From: an uncultured Chthonomonadaceae bacterium
GTDB taxonomy: Bacteria > Armatimonadota > Chthonomonadetes > Chthonomonadales > Chthonomonadaceae
Assembly (NCBI GenBank): GCA_963817895.1
Contig: CAWFQB010000014.1
Coordinates: 576,001 to 640,000, forward strand
Direction of reading: 5' to 3'
Length of the DNA stretch: 64,000 nucleotides
In this document: positions 20,326-46,128 of the stretch, one piece after another
How the letters are laid out: the number at the start of each line of letters is the position of its first letter
Numbering within the stretch: the stretch's first letter is position 1
Notes under the pieces: model-generated
Databases searched by the model: none
The model's input: the letters and a program-made list of their open reading frames with translations, nothing else
What the model was told of the DNA's origin: nothing
Position numbers and translations under genes: made by a program

Positions 20326-20565
20326 GACGCGCCTCCATGTTGTCTCGTGTAGCTTCTGCTGAAGTCGTAACGTGAAAGACTGCTCTAGCCAAAACAATCG
20401 AATTTCACTTTATCTTTTAACATGAATTGCCGCATTCTGTCAAACTCAAGCTGATATGCCCCCGAAAATTCTGGCTCCTCGGAGTGTTAGTCTCCAGCGC
20501 GGAAACGACAAAGGCACTTCAAGAACCCTCATTTGTGTAACTTGTGGAGAGAACCGCTCCCACGT

Positions 20566-21057: not shown

Positions 21058-22141
21058 TCAACCGGCAACCGGTGCTGTGCCTTCGCCAACGGGCAACGCA
21101 GGCGCATTGATCCAGACGACGTCGGGTAACTGCCCCGCCTGCGGACGCTCTCGAAAGCGTTGCGGATGCGCGGCATAGGCGTTATCTAACGTGACTTGCC
21201 GCTGCGCCAATACCTGCGTTGCTTCGCCGAAATGCACCTGTTCGGGCGTAAGCAACACCAAGCCGGTATGGTGGTGGCACGTATTGTACCCGACAAAGTA
21301 GTCCTGGCAGAACGTCTGCGCGTCTTCCTGGCTGCTAAAGCGCTCCGGGAAGTAGGCGCTGTACTTCATCGTTTTGAACCCGGCTTCCGAGTACGGGTTG
21401 TCGTTGCTGACACGCGGGCGGCTGTGCGAACGGGTCACCTGCAACGAAAGTAAGAGCTGCGCTACCGACTGGCTTTTCATCGGCCCGCCGCGATCCGCAT
21501 GGAGGGTGAGTTGGTTAGGCGCGATGTTGTATTTACGACAGGTTTCTTGCAGCAGCTTGTGCGCCAGGTATTGACACTCCCGGTCTGCGAGCATCCAGCC
21601 GACCACATAACGACTGTAGATGTCCATAACCACATATAAGTAATAGAAGCGACCCCGAATGGGCGTCTTCAAGTAGGTGATGTCCCATGTCCACACCTGA
21701 TTAGGGCCGGTTGCCTTAAGTTCAGGTTTGCTATACGCCGGATGCCTGCGAACCCGCCGACGCTCACAGATGGCTTGGTGTTCGTGCAGCAGGCGATACA
21801 TCGTGCGATAGGAAGCGTGATACACGCCTTCTTGCAGCAATTGCGCATACACCTGCCGGGGCGAAGCGTCTACAAAGCGTTCCGACAAGAGTAGATTGAG
21901 CAACAGGGCGCGTTCCTCTTCCGACAAGCGGCGAGGAGAACCCCGTTGTGCTTTGGGAACAAGGACGCCTTCTTGGATTGTGCCCGTACCAGCGTGTTGC
22001 TCCCGGTAGAAGCGGGCGCGGCTCAGTTGCACCGCATCACAGGCGCGGCCAATCCCGGTCGTTGCGCCCGCTTCGGCAACCAGGCTTATTCGGGCGGCGT
22101 TTCTTCCAGTGTCAGGTCGAGCAAGGCCGCTACTTTTTTTT
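21058..22141 (-). CDS. IS3 OrfB (DDE integrase core), reached by -1 frameshift
   Basis: WTWDITY, HADRG and DNPYSE motifs; frame open back to the A8G slippery site at 22133-22141. Confidence 0.88.
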
Positions 22142-23985: not shown

Positions 23986-24355
23986 CGCCAGCAAAGCAGC
24001 GGCACACTTCTGAGACTTCTGGGCATCGCTGCTACATTGCAGAACGGCGTGACAGAGTAAAGTCTGCGCAACGCCGTTCTGCAAACCGCGGGACGCAGGC
24101 AGGCAACATCTCTTGCGCCGCTCTGCCCTGCGCTGCGCAATACCAGACGTGTTCCGGCCTGCGCTGTACCCTGTGTGAGTTCGCAATGAAACGCCGCTCA
24201 CCGATGAACGCGTGGTCGTCAATCCTATTCAGAATTGGATACCTGATGAAAACACCTTTTGGGACGATAGCAGAAATCGTACAGCGACAGGCGTATCAGG
24301 AAGTCATTCTGTTCGACAAACATCAAATTCGGAGGGGAAAATAATCCAGAATTAC

Positions 24356-25503
24356 ATGGATCAGATACTTGCCGACCCCGCCTTCACCGGCGCTGTCGGC
24401 ACGATTGATGCTGAAGTCTGTGTTGCTTTTGACCGGGCGCGTCTGCGCTGTACCTATAATGAAAAGGACTGGCTGAAAGCGCAGGTACAGCAGGCCGGCG
24501 GCAGCCTGACATTTCTGACCGACCTGAAGCAGTGGCAGTTAAGAGGGATAAGGCCGGATGAACTTCCCGAAGCCCTTCAGCGTTTTGTCGTATATCGTGG
24601 CTGCGCGTACGCTTTCGTCTGGTATCGGAGTGACAGCCCCGCGTTACGAAGTTTCCTTGATCGGCTTAATAGAGGCTTCAAAATTTATCCCATAGTTTAT
24701 GATGCCGCCCGGCACGAGTTCCTGATTACGCAACAACCCCACCACCCCGGCCACTTTACAGAACCCGATTCTCTCCTCCATCCCGTTCTTCAAACGCTTA
24801 CTCCTGACCCGATGCGGACTATGACCGTCACGGAAGACGTTCGGGCCATGCAGCGTCAGAACGCGGCCTATCACGGCTTTCTTGTAAACGAGTACGGCAA
24901 AAATCTGTTTGAACAGGTTGTGCTTCCCCGGATTTTGATAAACTTCGGCGTGGGCGCCTGCTTTTTCCCGTGGATGTAGACCGTATTTTTTACTCCCTGA
25001 CCGCAGGGGAATACGAGTTCTGGGCCTTCGAGATTAAACACAAATACCCGAATGTACCCGCCTACGGCCAGCCAGCCTATTTTGGCCTGAACCTCGGAGA
25101 ACAGGCCGTGCTGGAACGGCTTCTGGCCTGCGACATCAAAATCATGCACACCATCCTGGTAAAACCGGTATGGGATGATACGGTATCCACGATGTCCATG
25201 TATACCAACAACAAACTGCGCGACGCGGCCCTGTTGATTTACCGTATTTTCGATGCTCCCTACATGGATACACTGCGCTCCCGGCCGGTTCTGCAATCTG
25301 GAGGCAAGACGACGGTGACCGGCAGAGGCAAACTCTCCTACCGCGCTCTTCCCGTCAACGAGTTTTATGAGATTGGGCCATTCTCTGCGCCTCAGAGTGA
25401 AACGGCTTCGGCGCTGGCTCACATTCTGCGGACTTCTGCGGCAACAGGCGAAATCGGCGTCACAACCCGGAGGCTGCATAGCCTGCGACAGCAAAATTTC
25501 TGA
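24356..25503 (+). CDS. Putative PD-(D/E)xK nuclease-like protein, one frameshift near 24965; start uncertain
   Basis: Two ORFs overlap at a T/C homopolymer; DVD...FWAFEIKHKYP. Confidence 0.55.
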
Positions 25504-29144: not shown

Positions 29145-32100
29145 CTATTCCGCAATCTCCTCCGTCTCGGCCTCTTCGACAGGAGGCGCGCTGCCCAGAA
29201 CGCGGGCGCGGTCAGCAGGATCGGCAATGCCGTACAGGTCGAGTACGCGCCGATCTATCATCGCGTCCGTGTCGGCAATGGCGTTCAGGCGGGTTGTGAT
29301 GGTTGCCGTAACCTGCGCTTCGCGCGCGAACAGACGGTGCAGGGCGTCCGCGTCGGCAGGCAGCAGGGCGGTGTCGCTGATCTCGTCCCACGAACGCGCC
29401 TGCCACTGCGGACGCGCCAGATAGTTGAGGAGGTAGCGCCGAACGTCCGCGCTGTCCACGTCCAGCCATAGTTGATTGGCGCGGAGGACAACCGTATTCG
29501 GAAATTTGTTCGGCGTGAACACCCGCCCGATTTGCGCGGACACATCGCAGGCTTCGGGGATACGCAGCAGGTTCATAGCGCGGGCGTCGAACAGGGACAC
29601 GACGGGAAAGTTTTTGTCCTGTGTCTGCAACTCGCGCAGCAGCGTGTCGTAGGGAGTCTGAATATCGGGCGTCCCATCGCGCCGCGTTCGGATAACATAG
29701 CCCTGTTCGCGCAACACATTCAGCGCGGCGTGATGCGCCAGAAGTTCGTCTACATGCGCGACAAGTTCACCCTGCGTCGCGGCGTCTGCGGGATAGATAG
29801 GTAATTGCCGGAAGTACGCAGGGGTGACATGGACGTTTTCATATTGACGCGCATACCAGTAGTTCAGCAGAGATGAATTGAACAGCGCCAGTATATACTT
29901 GAGGTCGTATGCCGGGTCTGAAGCGATTATATTGTTGAAATTCTTACGGTGGTAGAACTTTTGTTCGTCATAAGTTGCTACGAGACGCCGGTATAGCGAA
30001 CGGTCACGCATGTCTTGCGTGATAAGTTTAGGGGTGTCGAAAAAGCGTTGTTCTCGCGCGCGGCACAGCCAATTGCCATACTTGATATAAGGATGCGCCT
30101 TTCCCCAACGCTGTTCGTAGCGTCCAATAAACGCAGTCGTGTCTAGTAAAGGCTTCCATTGTGGTTCGTTAGAAGGCACTTCCCGTTGTAGTTTGATGTA
30201 GCTATTTGCTTTCCCCTCGTCTGCTGTTGTATACGGGTCAATTCCTGCACTGCTTTCCGTAATCTCGCCAAGACGAAGAATCTTCGTTGCAGTTCCGCCA
30301 GTAACAGGTACGCGACAGGCTTCTTCAACCTGTTTCAGCAGGTCATTCCAGCGAACTTTGATTTCGTGGCCTGTGGAGTCTATCCAATCAGCCTGCTTAT
30401 GCGCAAAGGTTTCCTTCCAATCTCGCGCTATGAGTTTGTCCAGTTTGTCCCGCACACCCATGCTGTAAACTTGTGTGTCTTGTGTTCGCCGCCGTGTGCC
30501 ATCACTATCTGAAGTCAGGAACAGCAACGCGCAATTAACGACCGCATCGCTCCAGATACCCTGCGGCAAATTGACAATCTGCTCAATACGGCCCGCCGTC
30601 AACAGCCGTTCACGTAATGCCTGCGTGTTGGTTCCCATCAGGTACGTATCCGGCGTAATGAAACCTAACCGCCCATTCTGGCCGAGCAGTCGCAAACCGA
30701 GCGCAAAGAAGAACACATACGTATCCGGCTGCCCGCCGAACACATCCCCGTACCACTCGCGCAGATTTATTTTGTACGAGTCGGTTAGGCCCGCGCCGTA
30801 GGGAGGATTTGCCACCACCCACGCGAAACCGGGCGCGTACTTGTCCTGCCGCGCCTTGATGCTGTCTACCACATCCAATTCTTCCGCCATCAGGGTATTG
30901 GCGCGGGCGTAGCGCAGAATGTTGGTGGACGGGGCCAGCGCGTCCACATTGTAGATATGGAACCGCTGCAAGCGCGGCGGCGTTTTGCCGTCAATCGCCA
31001 GTTTCACCAGATCAAGCACCTGTATGAGCAGGTTCACTTCCGCCAGATAACACGCGAACGGGTTCAGGTCGAAACCGTACAGATTCTCGCGCACGCTGTT
31101 GAGCAGGCTGCGCGGATTCATCGCCCCGCCCGCTTTGTACGCCGCCACCAGTCGCCGCGCCGCCTCGACAAGAAACGTGCCGCTGCCGCAGGCCGGGTCT
31201 ATGAGCCGCTTGTTCTGCCCGATGATGTCCGGTCCCGTTTGGTAGCCCGCCTCGTCCAGAATGTAGCGCACAATCGCGGGCGGCGTGTAGTATTGCCCCT
31301 TCTGTTTCTTTTCCGGGCGTTCCACATACGTGTTGTAGATCGTGCCGATGAGGTCGCTGTCCACGTCCGCGAAGTTGAAGCGGCTCAACTGATGCAGGAC
31401 GCGAATGAAGCGCAGGCGGTCGAGCGTGTACCAGTTGAACAGTTCGCGCCCCGTGAAAAAGTGGGCGTAAATGTTCTGCGCGTTCTGGTACGCCAGATCG
31501 AGGAGGGTGTTGTACGGGTTGCCCTCCACAAAGTCGAAGCGCGGATCAATATACTTTTGCCAGCCGCTCAAGCCGCCGTCCGAGAGAAAGCGATTGGGGA
31601 GGATGCCCTTGTCTTCGCAGACGCGAATGAGAAGCAGGCGGATAAACACGATGTACGTCGCCTGAAGCGCGAACTCATCCCGCCGCTGCGCCTCCTGCAT
31701 CCCGCCGAGCATAGTTTCCTGCACAACGGAAGTCCACAGCGCGTAGTTCTCATAGGTTTCGATGCTTTTGCGGTTGTCGTGCCGCAAAATGGCTTTTCTC
31801 TGATGCCATGCAAAGACAGTATTTCCGAACAGTGTCAGCGCGTCGCCCAATCCCTGTAGGCCGTTATCCCATTTCGACCACGCCTTGCCTGCCTTTTTAT
31901 CCCCGCCGAATTTGCGGGCGCGGGCCATATTGAGCGTTTCCAGAACCTTTGTTAGCAAAGCTCCCGTGTTGAGAAAGGCGAATGGGTCCCGTTCCAGTTC
32001 GCGCATGTCTTCGGCGAGCGTCTGGATTTCGTCCGTTTCCAGCCCCACGAGCGGCGCAAGCGGCGTCAGCAGTTCCATGACGCGAACGCGCTGTCGTTCC

Positions 32101-32912
32101 AGAATATCGCGCCCCCTTTCCGCATCCTCATCCTGCAAACGGTCGCGCCTGTCCTCGTATTCCGCATACGCTTGCAGGTGTCCATCCAGTATCCCCCGCG
32201 CTTCCGCCTGCAAGTCTTGCAGCAGGGTTCGCACCGCGCCCACGAGCATCTCCTGATTGGCCTCATGCCCGCCGAGCGGATACGCCTGCCGCTCCCACGC
32301 CTCCAAATCCATTGCCAGATCGCGTTCGATCTGCTTCCAATCCGCAAACGTTTCACGCCGAAACCGATCCCACAGCAGTTTCAATCCGCGTACCGTATCG
32401 GGCGCAAGGCCGTTCGCGCCCTCCTGCGCCCACTCGGTCAGCGCAAGGGCAACGTCCAAATCCAGAGCGCAGACGGGTTTGAGCGGATCATCGAACTGCC
32501 ATACCATCAGCCGCCTGCCGTTCGTCAGCCAGCCCGCGCGCAATCCCAATCCGCGCAGATACCCGGACAATTGGGCTAAATGGCTTTCCGGGTCATTCGG
32601 ATCAAGCGTCAATTCCAGTCCCGTGCTTTTGTCTTCTATCACGAAACAGGGGCCGAAATCCGGCACCTGCGGCGCGAAGTCCGGGCGTCCGTTCTTGTTG
32701 TTCTGGTTGTACACCTGCTCACCCGGCGCAAAGCCGAGTAAACTCAGCAGCGGGCCGACAATGGCATTATCCACAACAGACGCTTCATCGCCACCGCGTT
32801 TGGGCGCGGGGCGTTGCAGGTAGCGCAGGAAATCACTCCCCTTGAACTGCGGCTGCATAAAGAGCGCGAAAAAGCCTGCCTGAAATTCGTCAAATGTGGA
32901 CATGAGGGACAC
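29145..32912 (-). CDS. Type IIG restriction-modification enzyme (nuclease + N6-adenine MTase + TRD)
   Basis: RPDF...IEDK nuclease motif, LTNG, GQYYTP, DPACGSGTF, NPPY, TaqI_C-like LALFNSSLLNYWY..FRQLPI. Confidence 0.88.
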   Translation of the reverse strand: MSLMSTFDEFQAGFFALFMQPQFKGSDFLRYLQRPAPKRGGDEASVVDNAIVGPLLSLLGFAPGEQVYNQNNKNGRPDFAPQVPDFGPCFVIEDKSTGLELTLDPNDPESHLAQLSGYLRGLGLRAGWLTNGRRLMVWQFDDPLKPVCALDLDVALALTEWAQEGANGLAPDTVRGLKLLWDRFRRETFADWKQIERDLAMDLEAWERQAYPLGGHEANQEMLVGAVRTLLQDLQAEARGILDGHLQAYAEYEDRRDRLQDEDAERGRDILERQRVRVMELLTPLAPLVGLETDEIQTLAEDMRELERDPFAFLNTGALLTKVLETLNMARARKFGGDKKAGKAWSKWDNGLQGLGDALTLFGNTVFAWHQRKAILRHDNRKSIETYENYALWTSVVQETMLGGMQEAQRRDEFALQATYIVFIRLLLIRVCEDKGILPNRFLSDGGLSGWQKYIDPRFDFVEGNPYNTLLDLAYQNAQNIYAHFFTGRELFNWYTLDRLRFIRVLHQLSRFNFADVDSDLIGTIYNTYVERPEKKQKGQYYTPPAIVRYILDEAGYQTGPDIIGQNKRLIDPACGSGTFLVEAARRLVAAYKAGGAMNPRSLLNSVRENLYGFDLNPFACYLAEVNLLIQVLDLVKLAIDGKTPPRLQRFHIYNVDALAPSTNILRYARANTLMAEELDVVDSIKARQDKYAPGFAWVVANPPYGAGLTDSYKINLREWYGDVFGGQPDTYVFFFALGLRLLGQNGRLGFITPDTYLMGTNTQALRERLLTAGRIEQIVNLPQGIWSDAVVNCALLFLTSDSDGTRRRTQDTQVYSMGVRDKLDKLIARDWKETFAHKQADWIDSTGHEIKVRWNDLLKQVEEACRVPVTGGTATKILRLGEITESSAGIDPYTTADEGKANSYIKLQREVPSNEPQWKPLLDTTAFIGRYEQRWGKAHPYIKYGNWLCRAREQRFFDTPKLITQDMRDRSLYRRLVATYDEQKFYHRKNFNNIIASDPAYDLKYILALFNSSLLNYWYARQYENVHVTPAYFRQLPIYPADAATQGELVAHVDELLAHHAALNVLREQGYVIRTRRDGTPDIQTPYDTLLRELQTQDKNFPVVSLFDARAMNLLRIPEACDVSAQIGRVFTPNKFPNTVVLRANQLWLDVDSADVRRYLLNYLARPQWQARSWDEISDTALLPADADALHRLFAREAQVTATITTRLNAIADTDAMIDRRVLDLYGIADPADRARVLGSAPPVEEAETEEIAE

Positions 32913-34295: not shown

Positions 34296-37200
34296 TCACC
34301 TATCGAATTCCAGCAGCCAGTGGTCAGGGAATGCGCCATCATAGACGATCTGCCCGTCCGTTTCACCTCGGCGCAGGTTGGTTTTGCGCAGCAGGCTTTT
34401 GGCTGTGCCGGGAATGACGATGTGGGCGATATGCTTCCCGAAACACGTATGTTGACCGGCCCCGAAGTGGATGTAATCCGCGTAGGGACGACCGGCATTG
34501 AAAGCATCGGGATCGGGGAACTTGTCTTCATCGAACATGGCTGAGGTGGTGCCGACAATAACCAGCGTACCCTTGTGAATCAGGCGTTCGCGGGTTGTTC
34601 CCTGTGCCACAACCGTATCCTGTTCGCAGTGCCGCAGCAGGAACGGATTTTGCGGGTTGAAGCGCAGCGCCTCGAACACATACGCGGCGACAGTCGCGTC
34701 GTCATCGGCAAGCGCGGCCTGATGCGCGAGGGCAAGGGCGTCCGGGCGATCCAGCAGTTGATCCAACGCCTGCGTAATGGCTTTGGAATTGGTGTCTACC
34801 GTGCCGACAATCGTGCCGCCCAGTATCCGGCGAATGGTATCATCGTCCACGCTGCCGGGCTGTTCGTTTTCCATTTTCAGCAGGCGGCTGAGAAAATCGT
34901 CATGGCGTTCAGGGTTGGCGAGGACATCGGTTTTGAGCGACGCGATGCGCGCGTTCAGATAGGCGTTCAAGTCTGCCGCATCGGCAACCGCCTGTTCGCG
35001 CATCCCCGTATCGTTGCCCAGATTCAGGAAAATATCGCGGAAGATAGAGCGCATCCAGCGCATCTGCGTGGCCTCGTCCGGCCCCGGCATTCCAAAGTAG
35101 CCGGCGACAAGGCGCGACGGCACAACGCGGGAAAGCTGTCCCACCGCGTCTATGCGCCCTTCCGAAGCCACCGTTGCCACCAATGTATCCGCCGTTTGCG
35201 CCACAAACTTTTGTATGTACGCGAGATCATCCGCGTGAACGGTCTGGTGCATCAGTTCACATTCCCGATGGTACTGCGGCGTATCCCCCATACCCAGCAC
35301 AAAGTCGCCGGTTTCGCGCTCCATTTTCGCGGCATAGATTTCCGTGACCGAAAACGAGGCTTCATTGTTCAGCACTTCCAGCACATCGGCGTATTTGGAC
35401 ACGACCGCGAGGCCGGGAACCACCATAATGGGGTCGTGTTCGCGCAGGTGCTTGAACAGGGCGCGTAGAGGTATCGGGCGCGCGAGCATACCCTCCAGTT
35501 TTTTGGTGAATACTTCCTTCAAATTAACCAGTTCGTGATGCAGAGTCTGCTCTTCGGCAAGCGCGTCCTGCCATAAATGGTGCAATATGCCGCCCATCAT
35601 TCCTCCTGTTGTTATCGTTGGTCCGGCAGTCTGCCCGACGGCTGCTGCCGGTTCCGTTATGGTCGCCTGAATTGGCGCAGTTGCCTGACTTGGCGCGGCC
35701 GCCTGCGTCATCACAGGTGTCGCGTTTGCCGTAGGCGTTTCATCCATTGCCGACTTTTGGTTTGCCGCAGGCGTTGCGTTTGCCGCAGATGTTTGATTTA
35801 TTACCGATGTTTGAGTTGTTACCGGCGTCTGGTTTGCCGCTCCGGGCAGGGCTGTTTCGGCTAGAAATCGGAGGGCGCGGACACCCGGCATAAAGAAATA
35901 GCCGCCGCCCCGCACCCGCACGAAGCGGGGAATATCGTTGAGTTTCATGCGAACGGGCTGCGCGGGGATGCTCAATCGGCCTTTGCCGTCGTCGTTGTCG
36001 CCGATGAGCGGGTCCTTTTCATCGTACAGGCCGCCGAATTTCGTGCTGTTGAGCCACGTCTGCTGCACGAACTCGAACTGCCGCTGAATGTCGGCGTTCA
36101 AACAGATAAAGCACAGCCCCGGTTCCACGCCGGTCGGATTCCACGTTTCGCCCGGTTTGCGCTTGTCTTCAAAGTGCCGCCCGCGCCGCACAATCCTATG
36201 TCGGTTGGAAAGCACATTGGAACGGGCGGGATTGGGCAGCAGCGAGTCGCGGGGGTTGGCGCGGCGAATATGCGCCCCAATCGGGCAGGCCAATCCCTCG
36301 GCGTCCGTCGTCATAAAATGAAAATCGTTGGTATCGCGCAGGTCGGGCTTGTTGTCCTGAGTTGGGGAGAGCGTGAGCGGAGCGCCGCTCGGCCAGCGCC
36401 CGACAATTTTAGCGGCAATCCAGTTGGTCGTGTCCTGCGTATCGTCCAGTCCCAACTGCGCGGCTTGCCCCTTGACGTAGTTCCAGAAGCCGTCCACGTT
36501 CTGCCCCAACTTGCGGTAAATCAGGTACGTGCCGTTCCTGCCGAAATCCTTTGTGTTGGCGCTTCCACTCGTCGGCGCGGGCAGAAGGGCATTGGTGTCG
36601 GCGGAAGCGGGAACGGTTGGCGAAGTGGGAATCATGTCGTAGCCGTTGCGATAGCCGAACACAAACTCGCCCGCGTTGACCGGCGTATCACCGGGCGTAC
36701 ATTTGCCCGGACTGCCCGAAATGAACGGCTGCGAAATGCCGTCTTCAAAACCGAACGGCTCCTTGTTGCTGATACGCCCCGTATCCTGCTCATACACGAT
36801 TTTCAGCCCGCCGGTTTCTATCGCGGGCAGCAGGCGATTGCGAACCTCTGTCAGAACCTCATCCCCCTCCGCGTACAGCATCAGCAGCAGGTGAAACGGA
36901 GGGTTGTTCGGCCCGCCCATGTCCCATTTGTCGGGCGCGCTGTCGCCCGTATCGCCCAGGACGCGGGGCCGTTCGCCGCTTGCCATGCCCTCCTGAAACT
37001 CGCGGGCGAACATCGCCAGCGATTCGGGGGGAAGACCAAGCAGGCGCAGTCCCTCATACGTGAACGCGATATTGAAGCCGAAGGTGGGTTTGGGTTCGCC
37101 GCTCGGGCGGTACGCCGATGTGGTAATGAACGGCAACAACTGCTTCAATCCCGCCCGCGCCTGTTCGGGCGACCCGATTTGCAGGAACATGAACAGGGAA

Positions 37201-37307
37201 CAGGTGAGATGCCCGTATCCGCTCGTTACCAATCCCTGTATGTCGGGCAGTTCTTCCCGGCGCAGCTGCGTGTCGCTCGCGCTGTTTTCTAAAGTTTCTT
37301 GAGCCAT
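34296..37307 (-). CDS. DyP-type peroxidase fused to cytochrome P450
   Basis: DyP: FGFEDGISQP, GAHIRRANPRD, HRIVRRG; Ala/Thr linker; P450: GTVDT, EALR, HFGAGQHTCFG. Confidence 0.88.
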   Translation of the reverse strand: MAQETLENSASDTQLRREELPDIQGLVTSGYGHLTCSLFMFLQIGSPEQARAGLKQLLPFITTSAYRPSGEPKPTFGFNIAFTYEGLRLLGLPPESLAMFAREFQEGMASGERPRVLGDTGDSAPDKWDMGGPNNPPFHLLLMLYAEGDEVLTEVRNRLLPAIETGGLKIVYEQDTGRISNKEPFGFEDGISQPFISGSPGKCTPGDTPVNAGEFVFGYRNGYDMIPTSPTVPASADTNALLPAPTSGSANTKDFGRNGTYLIYRKLGQNVDGFWNYVKGQAAQLGLDDTQDTTNWIAAKIVGRWPSGAPLTLSPTQDNKPDLRDTNDFHFMTTDAEGLACPIGAHIRRANPRDSLLPNPARSNVLSNRHRIVRRGRHFEDKRKPGETWNPTGVEPGLCFICLNADIQRQFEFVQQTWLNSTKFGGLYDEKDPLIGDNDDGKGRLSIPAQPVRMKLNDIPRFVRVRGGGYFFMPGVRALRFLAETALPGAANQTPVTTQTSVINQTSAANATPAANQKSAMDETPTANATPVMTQAAAPSQATAPIQATITEPAAAVGQTAGPTITTGGMMGGILHHLWQDALAEEQTLHHELVNLKEVFTKKLEGMLARPIPLRALFKHLREHDPIMVVPGLAVVSKYADVLEVLNNEASFSVTEIYAAKMERETGDFVLGMGDTPQYHRECELMHQTVHADDLAYIQKFVAQTADTLVATVASEGRIDAVGQLSRVVPSRLVAGYFGMPGPDEATQMRWMRSIFRDIFLNLGNDTGMREQAVADAADLNAYLNARIASLKTDVLANPERHDDFLSRLLKMENEQPGSVDDDTIRRILGGTIVGTVDTNSKAITQALDQLLDRPDALALAHQAALADDDATVAAYVFEALRFNPQNPFLLRHCEQDTVVAQGTTRERLIHKGTLVIVGTTSAMFDEDKFPDPDAFNAGRPYADYIHFGAGQHTCFGKHIAHIVIPGTAKSLLRKTNLRRGETDGQIVYDGAFPDHWLLEFDR

Positions 37308-38548
37308 TCCGTAATCTCCGCCTCACCGGGGTTGCCGTTCAGCGTTTCGCTGATTTGTACCGACTCGGTGATGTTGCGCACGGTTGCGTTGGGATACGCG
37401 CTGTACCAGATCGCCGCATACTCGTTGCCGCGCCGGCTCCACGCTTTGAAGTCCTCGATGTGCTGCGCGCCGCCGAAAAACAGAAAGCGCGTGGTGGGGA
37501 AGTTGTCCGTGTTGCTCCACACCGAGGTCAGGCCGTAATTGGCTTTGTCCACAAAGTCGCCTAAATAACTGGCCCAACTGCCGTCATAGTTGCTGAAGAA
37601 CAGCAGGCGTTTATCATCGTCAATCAGCAGCCAGCGGGCAAAGTGAATGGTCGGGATGCCGCCCAGTTGCCCCGTGATAAACACGGTCTTCGCCAGCAGA
37701 TTGATGATCCAGAGGACGCCTTTGAGCGTGTTCAGCCTGAATTTACCGGGCTTGATGTTGGTCAGCGTGGTAAGGTGGTTTTGTACCCAGATGTCTTCCT
37801 TGCCGAACAAGCGCGGGTCTACTCCCAACAGGGGTGGTCCGGGCGTGGTATCGTCATGGTGTTCGTACCGGCGCAACGTGGGGACATACCACAGCAGAAA
37901 CAGGAGCAGGGCGGGCAGCAGCAGGATGCCTATGACAACCGCCAGCGCCATATTCAGGTGTGAACGCTTTACAAGGCTGCTGTACGAGTCGGAAGTTTGA
38001 AAGGCCGGAACAACCGGATTTTTGCCCAGATACGCACGAACCCGCTCGAATATCTGTTTGGGTGTCTGGCCGCGCAGGGTTTTGGCGGACTGTTCCGCGT
38101 CCAGACAGGCTTCGATGCCTGCCCGCGTGGCGAGAGCGCTTTTGATGACGGGAAGCGATTGCCCGTAGCAGCCGATGTAGAACGCGGCGTCCGCCACCCG
38201 GTTCGCCAGCAGATATTGCTTCAGTCGCGCCGGCGCGCCGTCCGTTCCAACCGCAAAGCCCTCGCAATGGGCGTAAATCTGCCGCAGTCCTTCGGGCGCA
38301 AGAGTGACAAACTCCTCCAGATGCGCGTCTATTGTGCCGTCGAAATTGGTTTCCCACACGAGGCAGGGCGCGAAATTCGTGTCCCGCTTCAGCACCACCC
38401 AACAGGTGAAGTGCAGCGTTTGAAATTTGGGGAACGGAATCAGGGAGTTGCCCTGAATATCCCCGCCGATGCTGTCCAGCAATGTTTCCAGCGCGTCCAC
38501 TTCGCCTGCTTTGATGCGCGTGACCACACTGAGCGCGTTTTGCGCCAT
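37289..38548 (-). CDS. DyP-associated hypothetical protein with two related domains and a central TM segment
   Basis: TLHFTCW...VWETNFDG and TIHFARW...LFFSNYDG repeats; SD AGGAGG; stop overlaps the DyP start. Confidence 0.8.
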   Translation of the reverse strand: MAQNALSVVTRIKAGEVDALETLLDSIGGDIQGNSLIPFPKFQTLHFTCWVVLKRDTNFAPCLVWETNFDGTIDAHLEEFVTLAPEGLRQIYAHCEGFAVGTDGAPARLKQYLLANRVADAAFYIGCYGQSLPVIKSALATRAGIEACLDAEQSAKTLRGQTPKQIFERVRAYLGKNPVVPAFQTSDSYSSLVKRSHLNMALAVVIGILLLPALLLFLLWYVPTLRRYEHHDDTTPGPPLLGVDPRLFGKEDIWVQNHLTTLTNIKPGKFRLNTLKGVLWIINLLAKTVFITGQLGGIPTIHFARWLLIDDDKRLLFFSNYDGSWASYLGDFVDKANYGLTSVWSNTDNFPTTRFLFFGGAQHIEDFKAWSRRGNEYAAIWYSAYPNATVRNITESVQISETLNGNPGEAEITEWLKKL

Positions 38549-38870: not shown

Positions 38871-39638
38871 ATGCCCGCCTTAGTCATTCTGCTTTTCCTT
38901 TTTATTTTGCTTCCGCCTGCAAAGGCGTATGTGCCGACTTCCGCGTACAAGCCCCGGCAGATGGAAGGGTTTACCGTTCTGGTCAATCCTGAACTGGAAA
39001 CCCATGCGGAGGAGGCGAAAGCGGCGTTTCAGGAACTGACGGCGCAGTTGAAGGCTATCAATGGCGTTGTGCCGGATAAGCCGCTGAACGCCCTGCACAA
39101 AGTAAAAATCTGGCTGGAATGGGAGAACCGCAAGGATGGGGCGGCGGAGTTTCACCCCTCCGCGCAATGGCTGCGGGAACACGGCTACAATCCCGACAAA
39201 GCGGGTTGCGTGGAGATTTCCAATGCGGCCCACTTCGTACAATGGTCCCATAACGAACAGCCCTGGATGCTGCTGCACGAGATGGCGCATAGCTATCGCT
39301 TTCTGACGCTCGGCGATAAATTTACGGGCGTACAGGAGGCGTATGCGCAGGCGATGCGCGACAAACTCTATGATTCGGTCGCGTATGTTCACGGAACCGA
39401 CAGGCGCAAAGCCTACGCCGCCACCAACGCGGAAGAGTATTTCGCGGAGTTGTCGGAAGCCTACTTCGGCAAAAACGATTTTTACCCGTTTGTCCGCGAG
39501 GAGTTGGAGCGGCACGATCCCACAGGTTACAAACTCATGGTTCAGGTTTCGGGCAAGCCGAAATCTTCGTCCCGAATTGAAGATGTACCCGTACCTGTTT
39601 TCAATAACAACGAACAAAAGAGCAAACCACACTTATGA
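38871..39638 (+). CDS. Secreted zincin metallopeptidase
   Basis: Signal peptide; LLHEMAH; YAATNAEEYFAE. Confidence 0.85.
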   Translation: MPALVILLFLFILLPPAKAYVPTSAYKPRQMEGFTVLVNPELETHAEEAKAAFQELTAQLKAINGVVPDKPLNALHKVKIWLEWENRKDGAAEFHPSAQWLREHGYNPDKAGCVEISNAAHFVQWSHNEQPWMLLHEMAHSYRFLTLGDKFTGVQEAYAQAMRDKLYDSVAYVHGTDRRKAYAATNAEEYFAELSEAYFGKNDFYPFVREELERHDPTGYKLMVQVSGKPKSSSRIEDVPVPVFNNNEQKSKPHL

Positions 39639-40537
39639 CTCAACCGACACCATGGAAAGGCGTATTTCCCGCCGCCACAACCCAATTGAAAGCCGACCAA
39701 TCCCTTGATCTGGACGCCACAGCGCGGCATCTGGAAATTCTCATTCAGTCCGGCGTTCACGGCATTGTGATGTGCGGTTCACTCGGCGAGAACCAGACGC
39801 TTTTGCCGGAAGAGAAGCGCGACGTGATGCGAATGGCGATTTCCGCAGTGGATAAGCGCGTTCCCGTTCTGAGCGGCGTGGCCGAAAATTCTACATCTGC
39901 CGCCTGCGCTTACGTCAAAGACATGGAGAGGATGGGCGCGGATGGCGTGATGGTACTGCCCGCAATGGTGTACAAAGCGGATGCGCGGGAAACCGCCGCC
40001 CACTTCCGCGCCGTCGCCGCTTCCACATCCCTGCCCATTATTGTCTACAACAATCCTATCGGCTATCACGTAGACGTGACGCCCGCGATGTTCGCGGAAC
40101 TGGCGGAAGTGGAAAACCTTGTCGCCATTAAAGAATCGTCCGCCGACACAACCCGCATTACTGAATTGTTCAACACGGTCGGGGATCGTTACGCGATTTT
40201 CGGCGGCGTGGACACGCTTGCGTTGGAATGTACGATGCTTGGCGCGGTCGGCTGGATTGCGGGAGTGGGGCTGGCATTCCCCCGCGAAAACGCCCGTTTG
40301 TGGGAGTTGATGATGGCCGGGGAATGGGAACAGGCGCGAACCTTATGGCGCTGGTTCCTGCCCCTGATGACGCTCGACATCGGCCCCCATTTCGTGCAGA
40401 AGATCAAACTGGCCTTGCAGGAGGTTGGCATGGGGCAGGAGTGGGTACGCGCCCCTCGTCTGCCGCTTGCGGGCGCGGAGCGCGAATCGGTGTTGAAACT
40501 TATTCGGGCTGGTATTGAGACACGGCCTTTGTCTTGA
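39635..40537 (+). CDS. DHDPS-family protein, probable 1-pyrroline-4-hydroxy-2-carboxylate deaminase
   Basis: WKGVFPA, GSLGE, YNNP, AIKESS; operon context. Confidence 0.85.
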   Translation: MTQPTPWKGVFPAATTQLKADQSLDLDATARHLEILIQSGVHGIVMCGSLGENQTLLPEEKRDVMRMAISAVDKRVPVLSGVAENSTSAACAYVKDMERMGADGVMVLPAMVYKADARETAAHFRAVAASTSLPIIVYNNPIGYHVDVTPAMFAELAEVENLVAIKESSADTTRITELFNTVGDRYAIFGGVDTLALECTMLGAVGWIAGVGLAFPRENARLWELMMAGEWEQARTLWRWFLPLMTLDIGPHFVQKIKLALQEVGMGQEWVRAPRLPLAGAERESVLKLIRAGIETRPLS

Positions 40538-40660
40538 ACCCGGATTTTCAGGATTAACGGATTTCAGGATTTCAGGGCGCAAGATTACCGATTTCACGAT
40601 TAATGGGCAGTGAGCCATCCTGTTCATCCAGTAATCCTGAAAATCCGGGTTCAAGACAAA
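40528..40660. repeat. Palindromic element with about 9-mer internal repeats
   Basis: tttgtcttgaacccggattttcaggatta ... taatcctgaaaatccgggttcaagacaaa. Confidence 0.8.
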
Positions 40661-40670
40661 AATACCCTTT

Positions 40671-41675
40671 ATGAACAGAGTCACTGTAATAGATTCACAT
40701 ACGGGCGGGGAGCCGACGCGGGTTGTTGTCAATGGTGCGCCGGAGTTGGGCAACGGCAGCGTTGCGGAACAGTTGCGCATGTTTCAAACGCGGTTTGACC
40801 ACTTCCGCGCCGCCGTTGTCAATGAGCCGCGCGGTTCCGATGTGCTGGTGGGCGCGTTGCTCGTCGAGTCTCAGGAACCGGATTGCGTGACGGGCGTGAT
40901 TTTCTTCAACAACGTCGGCTATTTGGGCATGTGTGGACATGGAACCATTGGCCTTGTGGTTACGCTGGCACATTTGGGGCGAATTTCTCCCGGCAAACAC
41001 CGCATTGAAACCCCGGTTGGCATTGTCACGGCGACGTTGCACGAGGCAGGCGACGTTTCGGTTCAGAATGTGCCTGCGTATCGTCATGCAAAGGGCGTGA
41101 GCGCGTCGGTTGAAGGTATAGGAACCCTGCGCGGCGATGTGGCGTGGGGCGGCAACTGGTTTTTTCTGGTCGAGGAACACGGACAGGAATTAAACCTGCG
41201 CAATGTCGAAGCCCTGACGGATTATACATGGCGGATACGGCAGGCGCTATCCACTCAGGGCATTACAGGACGGGATGGGCAGGAGATTGACCATATCGAA
41301 CTGTTCGCGCCCTCCGAAACTCCCAACGTTCACAGCCGCAACTTCGTGCTGTGTCCCGGCAAGGCTTATGATCGCTCGCCCTGCGGAACCGGCACAAGCG
41401 CGAAACTGGCCTGTTTGTATGCGGACGGCAAACTACGCGCCGGTGAAATCTGGCGGCAGGAGAGCATCGTCGGCAGCCTTTTCGAGGGCAGTATCCACGA
41501 GGAAAACGGTTCGCTCATCCCGACCATTCGCGGTTCCGCCTACGTCAACGCGGAAGCAACCCTGATTTTCAACCCTGACGATCCTTTCTGTTGGGGGATT
41601 GCCCTCACCCCCGCCCCTCTCCCAAAAAAGCCTGAGAGAGGGGAGACTGATATACTGGAAAATGGGGCTGAATAG
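40671..41675 (+). CDS. 4-hydroxyproline 2-epimerase (proline racemase family)
   Basis: [26 protein letters not shown] (Cys/Cys pair). Confidence 0.92.
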
Positions 41676-41787
41676 TTGCCTGTTTTATTCTTGCCTCGGA
41701 AACTGCAAAAGCAGAAAACATAACTTCATCAAAAATAAAGCCCCCTCTCCCAAGCTTTTTGGGGAGAGGGGGTTGGGGGTGAGGGCT
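41601..41787. repeat. Inverted REP doublet
   Basis: gccctcacccc...gagagagggg at 41601-41645 and an inverted copy at 41739-41787. Confidence 0.7.
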
Positions 41788-43070
41788 TGAATATTTGCAT
41801 TGTTGGCGGCGGCGTTATTGGACTGTTTACGGCGTATTATGCCATGCGGGAGGGACATCGCGTCACCATTCTGGAGCGGGGCGCGCCGGACCATGACGCC
41901 TGCTCGCTTGGCAACGCGGGCATGATCGTGCCGTCGCACTTTGTGCCGCTTGCCGCGCCGGGTATGGTGTCGCTCGGCCTGCGCATGATGCTCAATCCCA
42001 AAAGCCCGTTCACCATTCGCCCCCGCCTTGACCGCGATCTGGCGCGTTGGAGTTTGGCGTTTGCCCGCGCATCCACCCACGCCCACGTCGCCCGTTCCGC
42101 CCCCCTGCTGCTCGAACTCAATCTTGCCAGCCGCGCGTGTTACGAGGAACTGGCCGCGCTGTGGGGCAATGCCTTTGAACTGACGCGAAACGGCCTGCTG
42201 ATGCTGTGCAAATCCGCGCAAACGCTGGACGCGGAAGCGCATCTGGCGGAACGAGCGCGGGAACTGGGACTTGCCGCCGAGGTTCTCAACCGGGAACAAA
42301 CGGCGCAGCGTGATCCCGGCTTGCGCATGGACGTTGCCGGTTCGGTCTATTTTGCGCAGGATTGTCACCTGTCGCCGGGAAAATTGCTGGCGAGATTGAC
42401 GCAGGAGTTGCAGCAAAACGGCGCGTGTTTCGCGTGGTCAACCGAAGTGACCGGCTGGCGCACTGAGGGCAATCGCATTGACGCCGCGCAAACCAATCAG
42501 GGCGATGTGACGGCAGACGAATTCGTGATTGCGGGCGGGTCGTGGTCGCCCTGGATTGTACGCGGGCTGAATATACGGCTGCCGCTACAGGCGGGCAAAG
42601 GGTACAGCATTACCCTGCCCCACCCCAAACAGCAGCCCAATCTTTGCTCCATTTTAACGGAAGCCCGCGTCGCCGTGACGCCGATGGGCGATACCCTGCG
42701 CTTCGGCGGCACGATGGAGGTGTCGGGCTTGTTGGATACGCGCGTCAATGCCAATCGCGTACAGGGCATTTTGCAGGCCATTCCCAACTACTTTCCCGAC
42801 TTCACGCCCGCTGATTTCCACGATTTGCCCGTGTGGAGCGGCCTGCGCCCCTGTTCGCCCGACGGCCTTCCCTACATCGGACGCTTCCCGCGCTACCAGA
42901 ATCTCAGCGCGGCAACGGGACACGCCATGATGGGCATCAGCCTCGCGCCAATAACAGGTAAACTAATGGCAGCCATCCTTTCCAATGCGCCGACTCCGAT
43001 TGCGGTTGGAGCACTGTCACCGGAAAGATACGAGATAGGAGATAGGAGATACGAGAAGATGCACAGATAG
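41787..43070 (+). CDS. FAD-dependent D-amino acid dehydrogenase, probable D-hydroxyproline dehydrogenase
   Basis: GGGVIG, SLGNAG, GKGYS, WSGLRPCSPDGLP, TGHAMMG. Confidence 0.88.
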   Translation: MNICIVGGGVIGLFTAYYAMREGHRVTILERGAPDHDACSLGNAGMIVPSHFVPLAAPGMVSLGLRMMLNPKSPFTIRPRLDRDLARWSLAFARASTHAHVARSAPLLLELNLASRACYEELAALWGNAFELTRNGLLMLCKSAQTLDAEAHLAERARELGLAAEVLNREQTAQRDPGLRMDVAGSVYFAQDCHLSPGKLLARLTQELQQNGACFAWSTEVTGWRTEGNRIDAAQTNQGDVTADEFVIAGGSWSPWIVRGLNIRLPLQAGKGYSITLPHPKQQPNLCSILTEARVAVTPMGDTLRFGGTMEVSGLLDTRVNANRVQGILQAIPNYFPDFTPADFHDLPVWSGLRPCSPDGLPYIGRFPRYQNLSAATGHAMMGISLAPITGKLMAAILSNAPTPIAVGALSPERYEIGDRRYEKMHR

Positions 43071-43125
43071 AGTGGCGTATTTGCCAGACAAGTATTCCTC
43101 GTATCTCCTATCTCCTATCTCGTAT
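43026..43125. repeat. Palindromic heptamer-repeat element (GAGATA[C/G])n
   Basis: Tandem units followed by their reverse complement. Confidence 0.8.
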
Positions 43126-43145
43126 TTTTCCTCAAGGACAAAATC

Positions 43146-43976
43146 ATGCACCTTTACCGCACCACGCGCGGCGTTTTAGCGCAGGTGGACGACACTATTT
43201 ATTCACTGGGCGATGTGGCCTGGGATGTGGTATTCAACAGCGACAACTTGAGGGATACGGTTCAGCGGCTTGTGGATGATTCGGCAGGCATGGAGGACGC
43301 GCTGAAACCGGAGGAACTGCTGCCTCCCATACACGGGCAGGAGGTATGGGCGGCGGGCGTGACGTACTATCGCAGCCGCGACGCCCGCATGGAGGAATCT
43401 AAAACGGCGGGCGGCGAGGATTTTTACGCCCGCGTGTACGAGGCCGAACGCCCCGAACTGTTCTTCAAAGCGCCACCCTATCGGGTTGTCGGGAGTGGGC
43501 AGAACGTTCGCATCCGCCGCGACTCGCAATGGAACGTGCCGGAACCGGAACTAACCCTTGCCATCAACGCAAAGGGTGAAATCGTGGGTTACACCGTCGG
43601 CAACGACATGAGTTCCCGCGACATTGAGGGCGAAAATCCGCTGTATCTGCCACAGGCCAAAGTGTACGACGGAGCCTGCGCCCTCGGCCCCGGTATTCTG
43701 GTTACGAACGAACCGCAGTCCCCGGAAACCGCCATACGCCTTTCCATTCAGCGCAGCGGCCAGCCCGCCTTTGAAAGTGAAACCACTCTGGCGCAACTTA
43801 AGCGGACACCGCAGGAACTTGTCGAATATCTTTACCGCGAAACCAGTTTCCCGAACGGCTGTTTCCTGCTGACGGGTACGGGAATTGTGCCGCCGTCCAC
43901 CTTCACGCTGCAATCCGGCGACGAGATTACCATTGCCATTGACGGCATCGGTATATTGGTCAATACAGTATCCTGA
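43146..43976 (+). CDS. FAH-family protein, 2-keto-3-deoxy-pentonate dehydratase-like
   Basis: [43 protein letters not shown]. Confidence 0.88.
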
Positions 43977-44013
43977 GTTCGCATATCAGAGAGCCAACGA
44001 GACATAACGTAAA

Positions 44014-44499
44014 ATGAAACATAGCCGTCACGATCTTCTTAAAGCGCGATTCGCCTTAGCGCGACGCGATCTCAACTCAATCATGGTCCGCCTCACGCCT
44101 GATCTTCTGGATTGGGCGCCGGCAACAGGGATGCGAACCATATCGTGGCAACTCGTTGAAATTGTGGGAACAGAGATACAACTGATTTCGCTTTTGAAAG
44201 CCGACCAAAACATCTCTGACCCTGCTGCGCGGGAGATCATTGGCGATTGTGGGAGCCTGGACAATCTACGCCACGCTTTGATTGATTTCCGTCAACAAAC
44301 GCTTGACTATCTGGATTTGCTGTCAGAAACCGATTTAGCCGAGGAAATTAGCTTTGACGGCGGATGGTTTGCCTCGCTCATGTTACCCACAGTTCCACGC
44401 GCGGAAGTCTTCCTGAACATTGCCGACCATGAATGGTATCACGTCGGGCAACTCACCTCCTATATGTGGACACGCGGCGACAATCCCTATCAATGGTAG
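44014..44499 (+). CDS. DinB family protein
   Basis: WAP..GMRTI; DHEWYHVGQL. Confidence 0.8.
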   Translation: MKHSRHDLLKARFALARRDLNSIMVRLTPDLLDWAPATGMRTISWQLVEIVGTEIQLISLLKADQNISDPAAREIIGDCGSLDNLRHALIDFRQQTLDYLDLLSETDLAEEISFDGGWFASLMLPTVPRAEVFLNIADHEWYHVGQLTSYMWTRGDNPYQW

Positions 44500-44532
44500 C
44501 GCGACCTTTTACATCATCAGAAAGAACTTTTC

Positions 44533-46128
44533 ATGGAACTACACGGACAGAATTTTATCGGCAACGCCGTTTCCGCAGAGGAGACGGACAAGATAACAGC
44601 TACTAATGCCGCGACAGGCGAAGCGCTTGAACCCGGTTTTCATGTCGCCAATGACGCGGAAGTGGATCGCGCCGTCAGGCTGGCAAGTGACGCCTTTCCT
44701 GTTTATCGCGGATTGACGGCGGAACAGCGTGCCAGTTTTTTGGAGCGGATTGCGGACGAGATTGTCGCGCTTGGCGATGAATTGCTGGAGCGGGCAAATC
44801 AGGAAACCGCGTTGCCCCTTGCGCGTCTGACTGGAGAACGCGGGCGTACAGTGGGGCAGTTGAAACTGTTCGCTGCTGTAGTGCGCGAAGGGTCGTGGGT
44901 GGATGCGCGTATTGACCGGGCGCAGCCGGACCGCCAGCCACTGCCCAAACCCGATTTACGCCGCATGTTGATTCCGCTTGGGCCGGTCGGCGTGTTCGGC
45001 GCGAGCAATTTCCCATTCGCGTTTTCGGTTGCGGGCGGCGATACGGCTTCTGCGCTGGCGGCGGGCTGCCCGGTTGTCGTGAAAGCACATCCCGCGCACC
45101 CCGGCACATCGGAACTGACCGCGCAGGCCGTTCTTCGGGCGGCAGCCGCAACCGGAATGCCTGAAGGCGTGTTTTCCCTGCTGCACGGCCTGAAAGACAC
45201 GGGCATGGCGCTGGTGAAGCATCCCCTCTTGCAAGCCGTCGGCTTTACGGGTTCGCTCGGCGCGGGACGCGCCCTGTTCGATGCCGCTAATCAGCGCGAA
45301 CGCCCCATTCCCGTGTACGCGGAAATGGGCAGCGTAAATCCGGTTTTTGTTCTTCCCGGCGCACTGAAGGAGCGGGGGGAAAAGATCGCGGAGGGGTTGG
45401 CGGCATCCGTGACAATGGGCGTGGGGCAATTCTGCACCAATCCGGGTCTGGTCATCAGCCTGCAAAACGACGACATACAGGGATTTGTCACGAAAGCGGC
45501 GGAAAAGATCGGGCAGACCGCGCCGGGAAACATGCTGTATCCCGCCATCTGCAACGCTTACGGGCAGGGGATTGCGCGGTTACAATCCACACAGGGCGTT
45601 CGGCAGGAGCATGAAATTACCACACAGGCCAATGCGTCACTCGGACAGGCCAACGCCGCGATTTTCTCTACTCAGGCCGAAACGTTCCTCCACAATCCCG
45701 AACTGGCGCATGAGGTTTTCGGACCGTCCACCCTGCTCGTGATGTGCAAAACCCCGGACGAAATGGCAGCCGTAGCGCAGGGATTGGAAGGCCAGCTAAC
45801 CGCAACCATTCACGGCACCCCCGACGACCTGCGCGAGTACCACAAACTCATTTCCATTCTGGAAACCAAAGTAGGGCGTTTGCTCTTCAACGGCTTTCCG
45901 ACCGGCGTGGAAGTCTGCCCCTCCATGCAGCACGGCGGCCCATACCCCGCCACAACCGACAGCCGTACTACCAGCGTCGGCACAGCCGCCATCTTCCGCT
46001 TTGCCCGCCCCGTTTGCTACCAGGATTTCCCCTCCGAAGTCCTGCCCCCCGAACTGCAAGACGCCAACCCGCGCAATCTCTGGCGACTTGTGGATAATTC
46101 GATGAGCAAAGAGCGTCTTGAACCATGA
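44533..46128 (+). CDS. alpha-ketoglutarate semialdehyde dehydrogenase (NADP+)
   Basis: GASNFP..FS.AGGDTASALAAGCP, EMGSVNP, GQFCTNPG, HGGPYPAT. Confidence 0.92.
   Translation: MELHGQNFIGNAVSAEETDKITATNAATGEALEPGFHVANDAEVDRAVRLASDAFPVYRGLTAEQRASFLERIADEIVALGDELLERANQETALPLARLTGERGRTVGQLKLFAAVVREGSWVDARIDRAQPDRQPLPKPDLRRMLIPLGPVGVFGASNFPFAFSVAGGDTASALAAGCPVVVKAHPAHPGTSELTAQAVLRAAAATGMPEGVFSLLHGLKDTGMALVKHPLLQAVGFTGSLGAGRALFDAANQRERPIPVYAEMGSVNPVFVLPGALKERGEKIAEGLAASVTMGVGQFCTNPGLVISLQNDDIQGFVTKAAEKIGQTAPGNMLYPAICNAYGQGIARLQSTQGVRQEHEITTQANASLGQANAAIFSTQAETFLHNPELAHEVFGPSTLLVMCKTPDEMAAVAQGLEGQLTATIHGTPDDLREYHKLISILETKVGRLLFNGFPTGVEVCPSMQHGGPYPATTDSRTTSVGTAAIFRFARPVCYQDFPSEVLPPELQDANPRNLWRLVDNSMSKERLEP

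Follow-up and report, generated by a model that had tools for sequence, protein, structure and literature searches.

One-chain combinations of a DyP peroxidase and a cytochrome P450 have been catalogued as DyP subclass V4, in which a P450 is followed by transmembrane regions and then a DyP; the subclass is listed as unexplored, and an analogy with psi-factor oxygenase (Ppo) has been raised (Yoshida and Sugano 2022, PMC9719856). What most bacterial DyPs act on in the cell is described as an open question, and the DrDyP protein of Deinococcus radiodurans, purified alone, was inactive at neutral pH, its authors speculating on partner proteins (PMC10820274). Fatty-acid dioxygenases have two known kinds of hydroperoxide-converting partner, P450s and catalase-related proteins (PMC13049297). 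Here we describe a gene for a DyP-P450 fusion in a 64,000-nucleotide stretch (the window; positions 576,001 to 640,000 of contig CAWFQB010000014.1, assembly GCA_963817895.1) from an uncultured Chthonomonadaceae bacterium. Directly upstream lies a gene, overlooked in the initial annotation of this DNA, for an unnamed protein that is called UP below. The best explanation of the locus, put forward tentatively, is a UP-DyP-P450 cassette for the reductase-independent oxidation of unsaturated fatty acids, in which the P450 would rearrange a hydroperoxide whose likely source is UP-DyP.

The UP-DyP-P450 cassette

UP relatives are encoded in 316 stretches of GTDB genomes, of which 80 were kept for analysis. 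DyP lies directly behind UP in 79 of these 80 loci, and the remaining one stops at a contig end. This P450 is present in 42 of the 80, with DyP and P450 fused in 2 and encoded by separate genes in 40. The record titles name Armatimonadota, Acidobacteriota, Myxococcota, Bacteroidota, Actinomycetota, Planctomycetota, Gemmatimonadota and Pseudomonadota, those from Chthonomonadaceae being closest. The distribution is patchy: of 251 genomes from the window's phylum, five have the P450, and all five have UP and DyP as well. The fusion protein had been taken at first for a self-contained cascade, a description that these counts do not support, since DyP nearly always has a separately encoded UP as its partner and most loci encode DyP and P450 separately.

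In the pathway envisaged here, a lipase or the membrane would supply the unsaturated fatty acid, and UP-DyP would convert it to a hydroperoxide, for example through a protein radical generated at the heme, like that of COX-type enzymes. The tethered P450 would then rearrange or cleave the hydroperoxide to an oxylipin without external electrons. The parts of this proposal differ in strength. The substrate of the cassette is probably a lipid, and the other two parts are taken up with the evidence on which they rest.

The company of the P450 family

When 1.84 billion representatives were searched, 532 matched the P450 family at E<=1e-30. The fusion partners found among 37 long proteins of the family are GST, DyP, COX-like peroxidase (in both orders), SnoaL and phosphotriesterase. 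In one of these proteins (P0357) a COX-like domain (E=1.5e-54 to COX-1) is joined to this P450 in the Ppo architecture; P0357 and a second COX-like dioxygenase-P450 fusion (P0320), which come from metagenome or NCBI records, have opposite orders. GST-P450 fusions recur in the family (P0245, P0257, P0259, P0302, P0389 and others), including DyP-P450-GST and GST-P450-UP forms, and some P450s are fused to additional parts of about 300-500 amino acids without a Pfam match (L155:2467-4800, L158:5722-8073, L170, L172).

Similar partners are found as neighbouring genes. On plasmids of R. etli and S. medicae this P450 adjoins peroxidases bearing the YRWH motif, and on a plasmid of M. radiotolerans a di-heme enzyme and a patatin-like gene are encoded in its vicinity. 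A metagenome sample targeted at the COX-linked branch of the family (80 of 254 kept) yielded 61 family loci in 39 clusters at 80%. The neighbour is a di-heme enzyme in 18 clusters, a COX-like protein in 7 and DyP/UP in 4; the other 10 have none of these, many of them lying on short contigs, and one is a lipase-P450-lipoxygenase locus (L129). Patatin occurs in one cluster. The YRWH motif is present in nine of nine long COX-like partners, and all six di-heme partners tested pass NF040606 as RoxA-like; the oleate dioxygenase and diol synthase of Pseudomonas aeruginosa are also RoxA-like (PMC4496055). Because the partners of the family fall in three independent enzyme classes, the P450 itself is likely to use hydroperoxides.

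UP and DyP appear to alternate with the dioxygenase-type partners. No COX-like or di-heme gene was found at 100 UP+DyP loci, and neither UP nor DyP at 56 loci where the P450 stands with a gene of either kind. Because of kinship among the loci and short flanks (1-8 kb), the counts overstate independence and are indicative only; the comparison used a set of hidden Markov models without lipoxygenase, and the counts are uncorrected for how common each of the three dioxygenase families is in general. Another phylum (that of a record titled Gammaproteobacteria, G251) was sampled evenly, and of its 401 genomes 14 carry this P450 family, next to UP+DyP in 11 and a di-heme enzyme in 3. In 16 of 19 cassette genomes, no gene anywhere exceeded the cut-off of NF040606, PF03098 (An_peroxidase) or PF00305 (lipoxygenase), while three di-heme control genomes did give matches. 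Because UP-DyP thus substitutes in the dioxygenase slot beside the same P450 family, it might be the hydroperoxide-forming step, a suggestion appreciably weaker than that on the P450.

The company of UP and DyP

The P450 is itself replaceable at UP+DyP loci. In D. radiodurans, Rhodococcus and Agrobacterium, UP and DyP have a catalase-family gene next to them, and a catalase-related domain is fused to DyP in five proteins that have no P450 (P0068, P0069, P0071, P0081, P0087); the catalase-like partner has no match in PDB. Three of the fused domains (P0068, P0069, P0071) read RAGNTKT where the adjacent catalase-family genes read RDAHAK or RDAHPK, the presumed distal His being replaced.

Several of the associated genes are of lipid-related families. 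Fusions join DyP to patatin-like membrane domains, in 13 proteins by blastp, and in one to an alpha/beta hydrolase, and patatin-like genes also stand beside DyP. In Agrobacterium (L209), genes for oleate hydratase, 3-hydroxyacyl-CoA dehydrogenase and acyl-CoA thioesterase are divergent from a catalase-UP-DyP run, and the genome containing the window has one fatty-acid desaturase match. The initial annotation had drawn an analogy with Ppo and oxylipin enzymes, which gains support from this gene context and from the P450 motifs described below; its other suggestion, aromatic oxidation, finds none in the gene context, and neither does dye oxidation.

The same lipid context would also suit a cassette without any dioxygenase step. 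Lipid hydroperoxides formed by autoxidation or by other organisms would be rearranged by the P450 or the catalase-like partner, and DyP with UP would reduce them or use them as oxidant. DyPs do consume peroxide, and disposal of this kind could account for the GST fusions, for a caleosin near three loci, and for the Fur and katG genes near a Granulicella UP+DyP locus that has neither a P450 nor a catalase partner. It is nonetheless unlikely, since it leaves unexplained both the alternation of UP+DyP with known dioxygenase-type genes beside the same P450 family and the fused lipases, which would release substrate.

Anatomy of the P450

Among 281 domains of the P450 family, an F-x-L motif in the B'-C loop is conserved at 88/93% and an FxxxF motif in helix F at 67/98%, and the Gly that usually stands three residues before the I-helix Thr is nearly lost (2%). 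All three features agree with Table 3 of PMC13049297, which covers fungal LDS and AOS. The lining motifs of the fungal DOX-CYP enzymes are present in the window's P450 as F669-V-L671 at substrate recognition site (SRS) 1a, F756xxxF760 at SRS2, and H953-T-C955, of which HxC is general in bacterial P450s. The acid-alcohol positions of the family hold D/E in 58% and Pro in 36%, followed by T in 81%. None of the best 60 PDB matches of the family profile belongs to the CYP74 clan or CYP152, and a P450-profile search aimed at fungal Ppo/LDS returned only 44 bacterial-type fusions; neither the PDB search nor that of the 1.84 billion representatives yielded a fungal sequence.

Several points weigh against the oxylipin pathway. 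The reactions known for DyPs use up peroxide (PMC9719856), the literature search brought up no DyP that acts as a dioxygenase, and the window's own neighbour genes are not lipid genes. The proposed relation of the P450 to fungal DOX-CYP domains is one of motifs only. At SRS4 the NQxQ motif with the axial Asn of LDS and EAS is missing and T839 stands at that spacing, and the nearest solved relatives are ordinary bacterial P450s. It should be added that 8R/9R-AOS likewise carry Thr at the SRS4 axial position (PMC13049297). The acid-alcohol pair D838-T839 is retained and is compatible with an ordinary monooxygenase. Three of the 19 cassette genomes do encode dioxygenase-type genes elsewhere, and the exclusivity counts carry the limits given with them. 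Finally, ferredoxin-like patterns occur at 12 places elsewhere in the genome, although none is on the window's contig, in agreement with the earlier observation that no ferredoxin gene is nearby.

Several of these points would fit conventional chemistry on non-lipid substrates, in which a P450 driven by O2 and ferredoxin or by H2O2 would act alongside one-electron oxidation of aromatics or terpenoids by DyP. The retained acid-alcohol pair, the PDB neighbours, which are normal P450s, and the ferredoxin-like genes elsewhere in the genome are all as expected on that explanation, and ABA4-like and Lcp/mpaB-like neighbours in three loci hint at isoprenoids. Against this, a ferredoxin motif lies within 4 kb at only 1 of 125 P450-family loci, the recurrent partners are fatty-acid-type oxygenases and lipases, and no aromatic-catabolism genes recur among the scanned neighbours (a listing in which genes below about 90-120 amino acids are uncalled). 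Conventional chemistry of this kind is improbable, somewhat more so than hydroperoxide disposal.

The UP protein

Searches of Pfam, NCBIfam and PDB sequences with UP gave no match, those of Atlas returned 'hypothetical protein' clusters only, and no solved relative was found by sequence. There are 1646 homologues among 8000 scored candidates, those listed being unnamed. In the AlphaFold2 (AF2) model (pLDDT 93.8), two ferredoxin-like halves form a tandem dimeric alpha+beta barrel, which would place UP with the ABM / dimeric alpha+beta barrel superfamily at the level of fold only. The closest structure is WhiE-ORFI (9lmn; Z 15.7, root-mean-square deviation 4.2, 226 aligned; Foldseek E=5e-6). A His-Phe motif occurs once in each half (H46 conserved at 98%, H302 at 99%), both halves contain invariant His, Asn, Asp, Tyr and Trp residues, and there is a single strongly hydrophobic helix at about residues 201-219.

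UP is predicted to bind the DyP of the fusion. The model of the complex scores 0.83, against 0.00 for the best of three controls, with contact agreement of at least 94% between runs and a partner pLDDT of at least 87; of 157 solved pairs 116 attained the mark for this score, as did 2 of 215 mismatched ones, counts that are only roughly applicable here. One could go further and suppose that UP and DyP form a membrane-associated heterodimer, which would add an undescribed fourth class to the fatty-acid dioxygenases known as lipoxygenases, COX-type enzymes and di-heme enzymes, and would feed a large bacterial family of hydroperoxide-rearranging P450s or catalase-like lyases. This extension is doubtful, a little more so than the suggestion that UP-DyP forms the hydroperoxide.

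The missing step might instead be catalyzed by UP itself, as a cofactor-free oxygenase, a cyclase, an epoxide hydrolase or a protein with a His-ligated heme or metal site, with DyP only activating UP or removing peroxide. The ABM-type fold takes in cofactor-independent oxygenases and cyclases (judging from the titles of the structural matches), both halves of UP have the invariant residues named above, and there are P450-UP fusions with no DyP in the chain (P0284, G012). Identity to the structural matches is at most 12%, however, and a common fold proves no function; moreover, the full DyP catalytic set is kept in all aligned rows, and UP is practically always accompanied by DyP. Catalysis by UP in place of DyP is quite improbable. 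D. radiodurans DR_A0146 was considered as a counterpart of UP and rejected: this gene, of the catalase family, follows that for DyP, whereas the UP homologue precedes it.

The DyP-P450 fusion gene

The fusion is encoded by one stop-free open reading frame (37307 to 34296) on the minus strand, the plus strand being interrupted by stops (Table 1). The motifs named in the initial annotation are all present: in the DyP part the distal Asp D189 (GFEDG), the proximal His H346 (AHIRR) and the distal Arg R374 (RIVRRG), and in the P450 part E879-x-x-R882 and the Cys-thiolate loop with C955. R374 is invariant across all aligned rows, and R375 is variable in triple fusions. W128, W305, W418, Y219, Y470 and C341 are additional conserved residues of the DyP part. 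By phmmer this part matches PDB 8RE3 (E=4e-59, residues 39-484 covered), a D. radiodurans DyP chain identical in sequence to the DyP in locus L086, and PDB 7ANV (E=1e-36); it lies below the curated cut-offs of Pfam DyP_N (25.8 against 27.5) and TIGR01413 (84 against 100.5). The P450 part matches Pfam p450 PF00067 with E=1.8e-21 (76.9 bits against a cut-off of 22.8). The AF2 model of the fusion shows two folded domains joined by a stretch of low confidence (residues 490-597, pLDDT<50), their relative orientation being unfixed (pTM 0.54).

Table 1. Features of the window; position 1 is its first letter.
Feature	Position	Strand	Description
UP	37289..38548	-	419 aa, unnamed, no Pfam; overlaps start of DyP-P450 gene by 19 nt
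DyP-P450 gene	34296..37307	-	1003 aa
DyP peroxidase domain	35847..37307	-	residues 1-487 (~15-487); class V/C-D type; D189, H346, R374
Ala/Thr/Gln/Pro-rich linker	35601..35846	-	residues 488-569, ~82 aa; predicted disordered; length varies among relatives
AGGAGG-A-ATG-ATG (M570, M571)	35595..35607	-	linker end; AGGAGG-to-ATG spacing only 1 and 4 nt
Cytochrome P450 domain	34296..35600	-	residues 570-1003; F669xL, F756xxxF760, G835-T-V-D-T839-N I-helix, E879xxR882, C955
Hydroxyproline-catabolism-like run	39635..46128	+	DHDPS family, proline racemase family, DAO-type oxidoreductase, FAA hydrolase, DinB, aldehyde dehydrogenase
Eco57I/TaqI-like restriction-modification fusion	29145..32912	-	1255 aa
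Overlapping open reading frames	24212..25503	+	255 and 177 aa, no Pfam match
rve-type transposase	21058..22032	-	
Cyclase-AAA-TPR STAND protein	17425..20397	-	

The fusion is an intact gene and not a sequencing error. Two relatives on other contigs, of 983 aa (P0002, 91%) and 971 aa (P0003, 75%), are likewise fused, with shorter linkers, and 54 DyP-P450 fusions with a long DyP match are found among all fetched proteins. The junction is also bridged by three contigs from two of four other runs, with length differences of -57, -57 and -72 bases, each a multiple of 3; this was judged by length, the intervening letters being unseen, so that stops are possible. The single reading frame and its continuity across the linker, which the initial annotation had proposed to check, are thus borne out, with the linker put at about 82 rather than about 85 residues. 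That an assembly artefact joined two neighbouring genes is very improbable: the nearest GTDB relative (L001) does have a stop and a frame change at the junction, and a start signal is still present in the linker, but that relative is also frameshifted within DyP, making its split unreliable, and the artefact would have to be squared with the 54 fused relatives and the junctions of in-frame length in three contigs of other runs.

The start signal points to how the fusion arose. The AGGAGG and the codons for M570 and M571 at the linker end are possibly a relic, or possibly an internal start of the P450 gene. Stand-alone P450 relatives begin at this position, at the linker-end AGGAGG-A-ATG-ATG, and several other fusions retain Met or Val there, and so the most likely origin is read-through of the DyP stop into the adjacent P450 gene at an operon junction.

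The fusion is recurrent. Of 184 homologues with lengths of 551-1756 aa, the 120 best divide into 34 DyP-P450 proteins (including the query and three partial ones), 46 P450-UP-DyP, 29 UP-DyP and 11 with DyP but neither UP nor P450, and the fused arrangements found in all are DyP-P450, P450-UP-DyP, UP-DyP and P450-UP. On a tree of P450 domains (FastTree only, 164 of 281 domains, long branches flagged), at least 13 changes between the fused and the separate state are required for 97 labelled rows. Fusion is also optional, because 40 of the 42 three-gene loci keep DyP and P450 apart, and it only tethers the two enzymes.

Other neighbouring genes

The hydroxyproline-catabolism-like run of the window is seemingly unrelated to the cassette; the remaining features in Table 1 are listed for completeness. 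A second, lone DyP is encoded in the same genome (G000:C2:364271-365875; L098:8272-9876), and the roughly 8 kb around it contain neither UP nor P450. At cassettes elsewhere, kinase-AAA STAND genes lie directly upstream of UP in Myxococcota and Bacteroidota (L034, L040, L046, L047, L054, L065, L077), and a membrane protein of about 200 aa without a Pfam match is encoded behind the cassette in four Bacteroidota loci (L035, L051, L052, L059). ABA4-like membrane genes are found beside or inside two cassettes (L001:7245-7682, L008:7661-8146), and an Lcp/mpaB-type oxygenase gene behind one (L034:10809-11750).

Comparison with known systems

A literature search, which was not exhaustive, found no characterised DyP-P450 fusion or cassette, no description of UP and no dioxygenase substitution pattern; the order DyP-P450 was not found in print, and the supplements of PMC9719856 may list it. 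A term search of PMC13234801 turned up neither P450 nor fusion. The initial statement that no characterised DyP-P450 fusion is known therefore stands as regards characterisation; as to the architecture, one-chain DyP plus P450 proteins were already catalogued as V4, together with the Ppo suggestion (PMC9719856). The fusion alone is less surprising than the cassette, because fusions form and split repeatedly. The cassette offers bacterial DyPs a partner protein, UP, and a candidate class of substrate. If a widespread P450 family does accompany fatty-acid dioxygenase-type genes, bacterial oxylipin biosynthesis would then reach into at least eight phyla among these loci; and if UP+DyP is a dioxygenase, past studies of many class V bacterial DyPs, DrDyP for example, would have lacked both the partner subunit and the real substrate.

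DrDyP (DR_A0145, PDB 8RE2/8RE3) is the closest solved DyP, and its gene has a half-length UP homologue before it and a catalase-family gene after it. DrDyP differs from the window's DyP in being unfused and in its GxxDM motif. The pair formed by the 10S-dioxygenase and the catalase-related hydroperoxide lyase of Nostoc punctiforme (PMC13049297) is likewise a bacterial two-gene system that makes and converts a hydroperoxide, and catalase-related genes replace the P450 beside UP+DyP; the first enzyme, however, is unlike UP-DyP, and the catalase-like proteins are compared with the Nostoc lyase at the level of family. The oleate-diol synthase system of P. aeruginosa (PA2077/PA2078, FadCcp; PMC4496055) resembles the many loci at which RoxA-like di-heme enzymes with the same HNGSVP signature stand beside this P450 family, the resemblance being one of family and signature. 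A di-heme gene of the PA2077/PA2078 type is absent from the window locus and was not found in the host genome (81% complete).

Subclass V4 shares with the window's protein the presence of DyP and P450 in one chain, and the same DyP and P450 families occur in the 46 P450-UP-DyP proteins. According to the present analysis, the middle 'transmembrane regions' of V4 would be the UP barrel domain. The window's protein differs in having the order DyP-P450, with UP as a separate gene, and so lacks the domain order that defines V4. On a FastTree-only tree of 94 DyP domains (91 of 117 plus 3 others, with long branches flagged and no V4 reference set), its nearest rows are DyP-P450 fusions and the triple fusions group apart (2 changes).

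The fungal dioxygenase-P450 fusions (Ppo/LDS/AOS/EAS; PMC13049297) have in common with the window's protein two hemes, a C-terminal P450, the FxL, FxxxF and HxC motifs and the lack of a reductase, and the window's P450 family also occurs fused to a COX-like domain (P0357). They differ in the N-terminal domain, which in the window is a DyP rather than a peroxidase-cyclooxygenase, with no PF03098 match and no YRWH motif, and in the NQxQ motif, which is missing from the window's protein. The window's system involves a third protein as well. By domain order the window's protein is thus not V4, and by its first domain it is not a Ppo, but by analogy it likely works like one.

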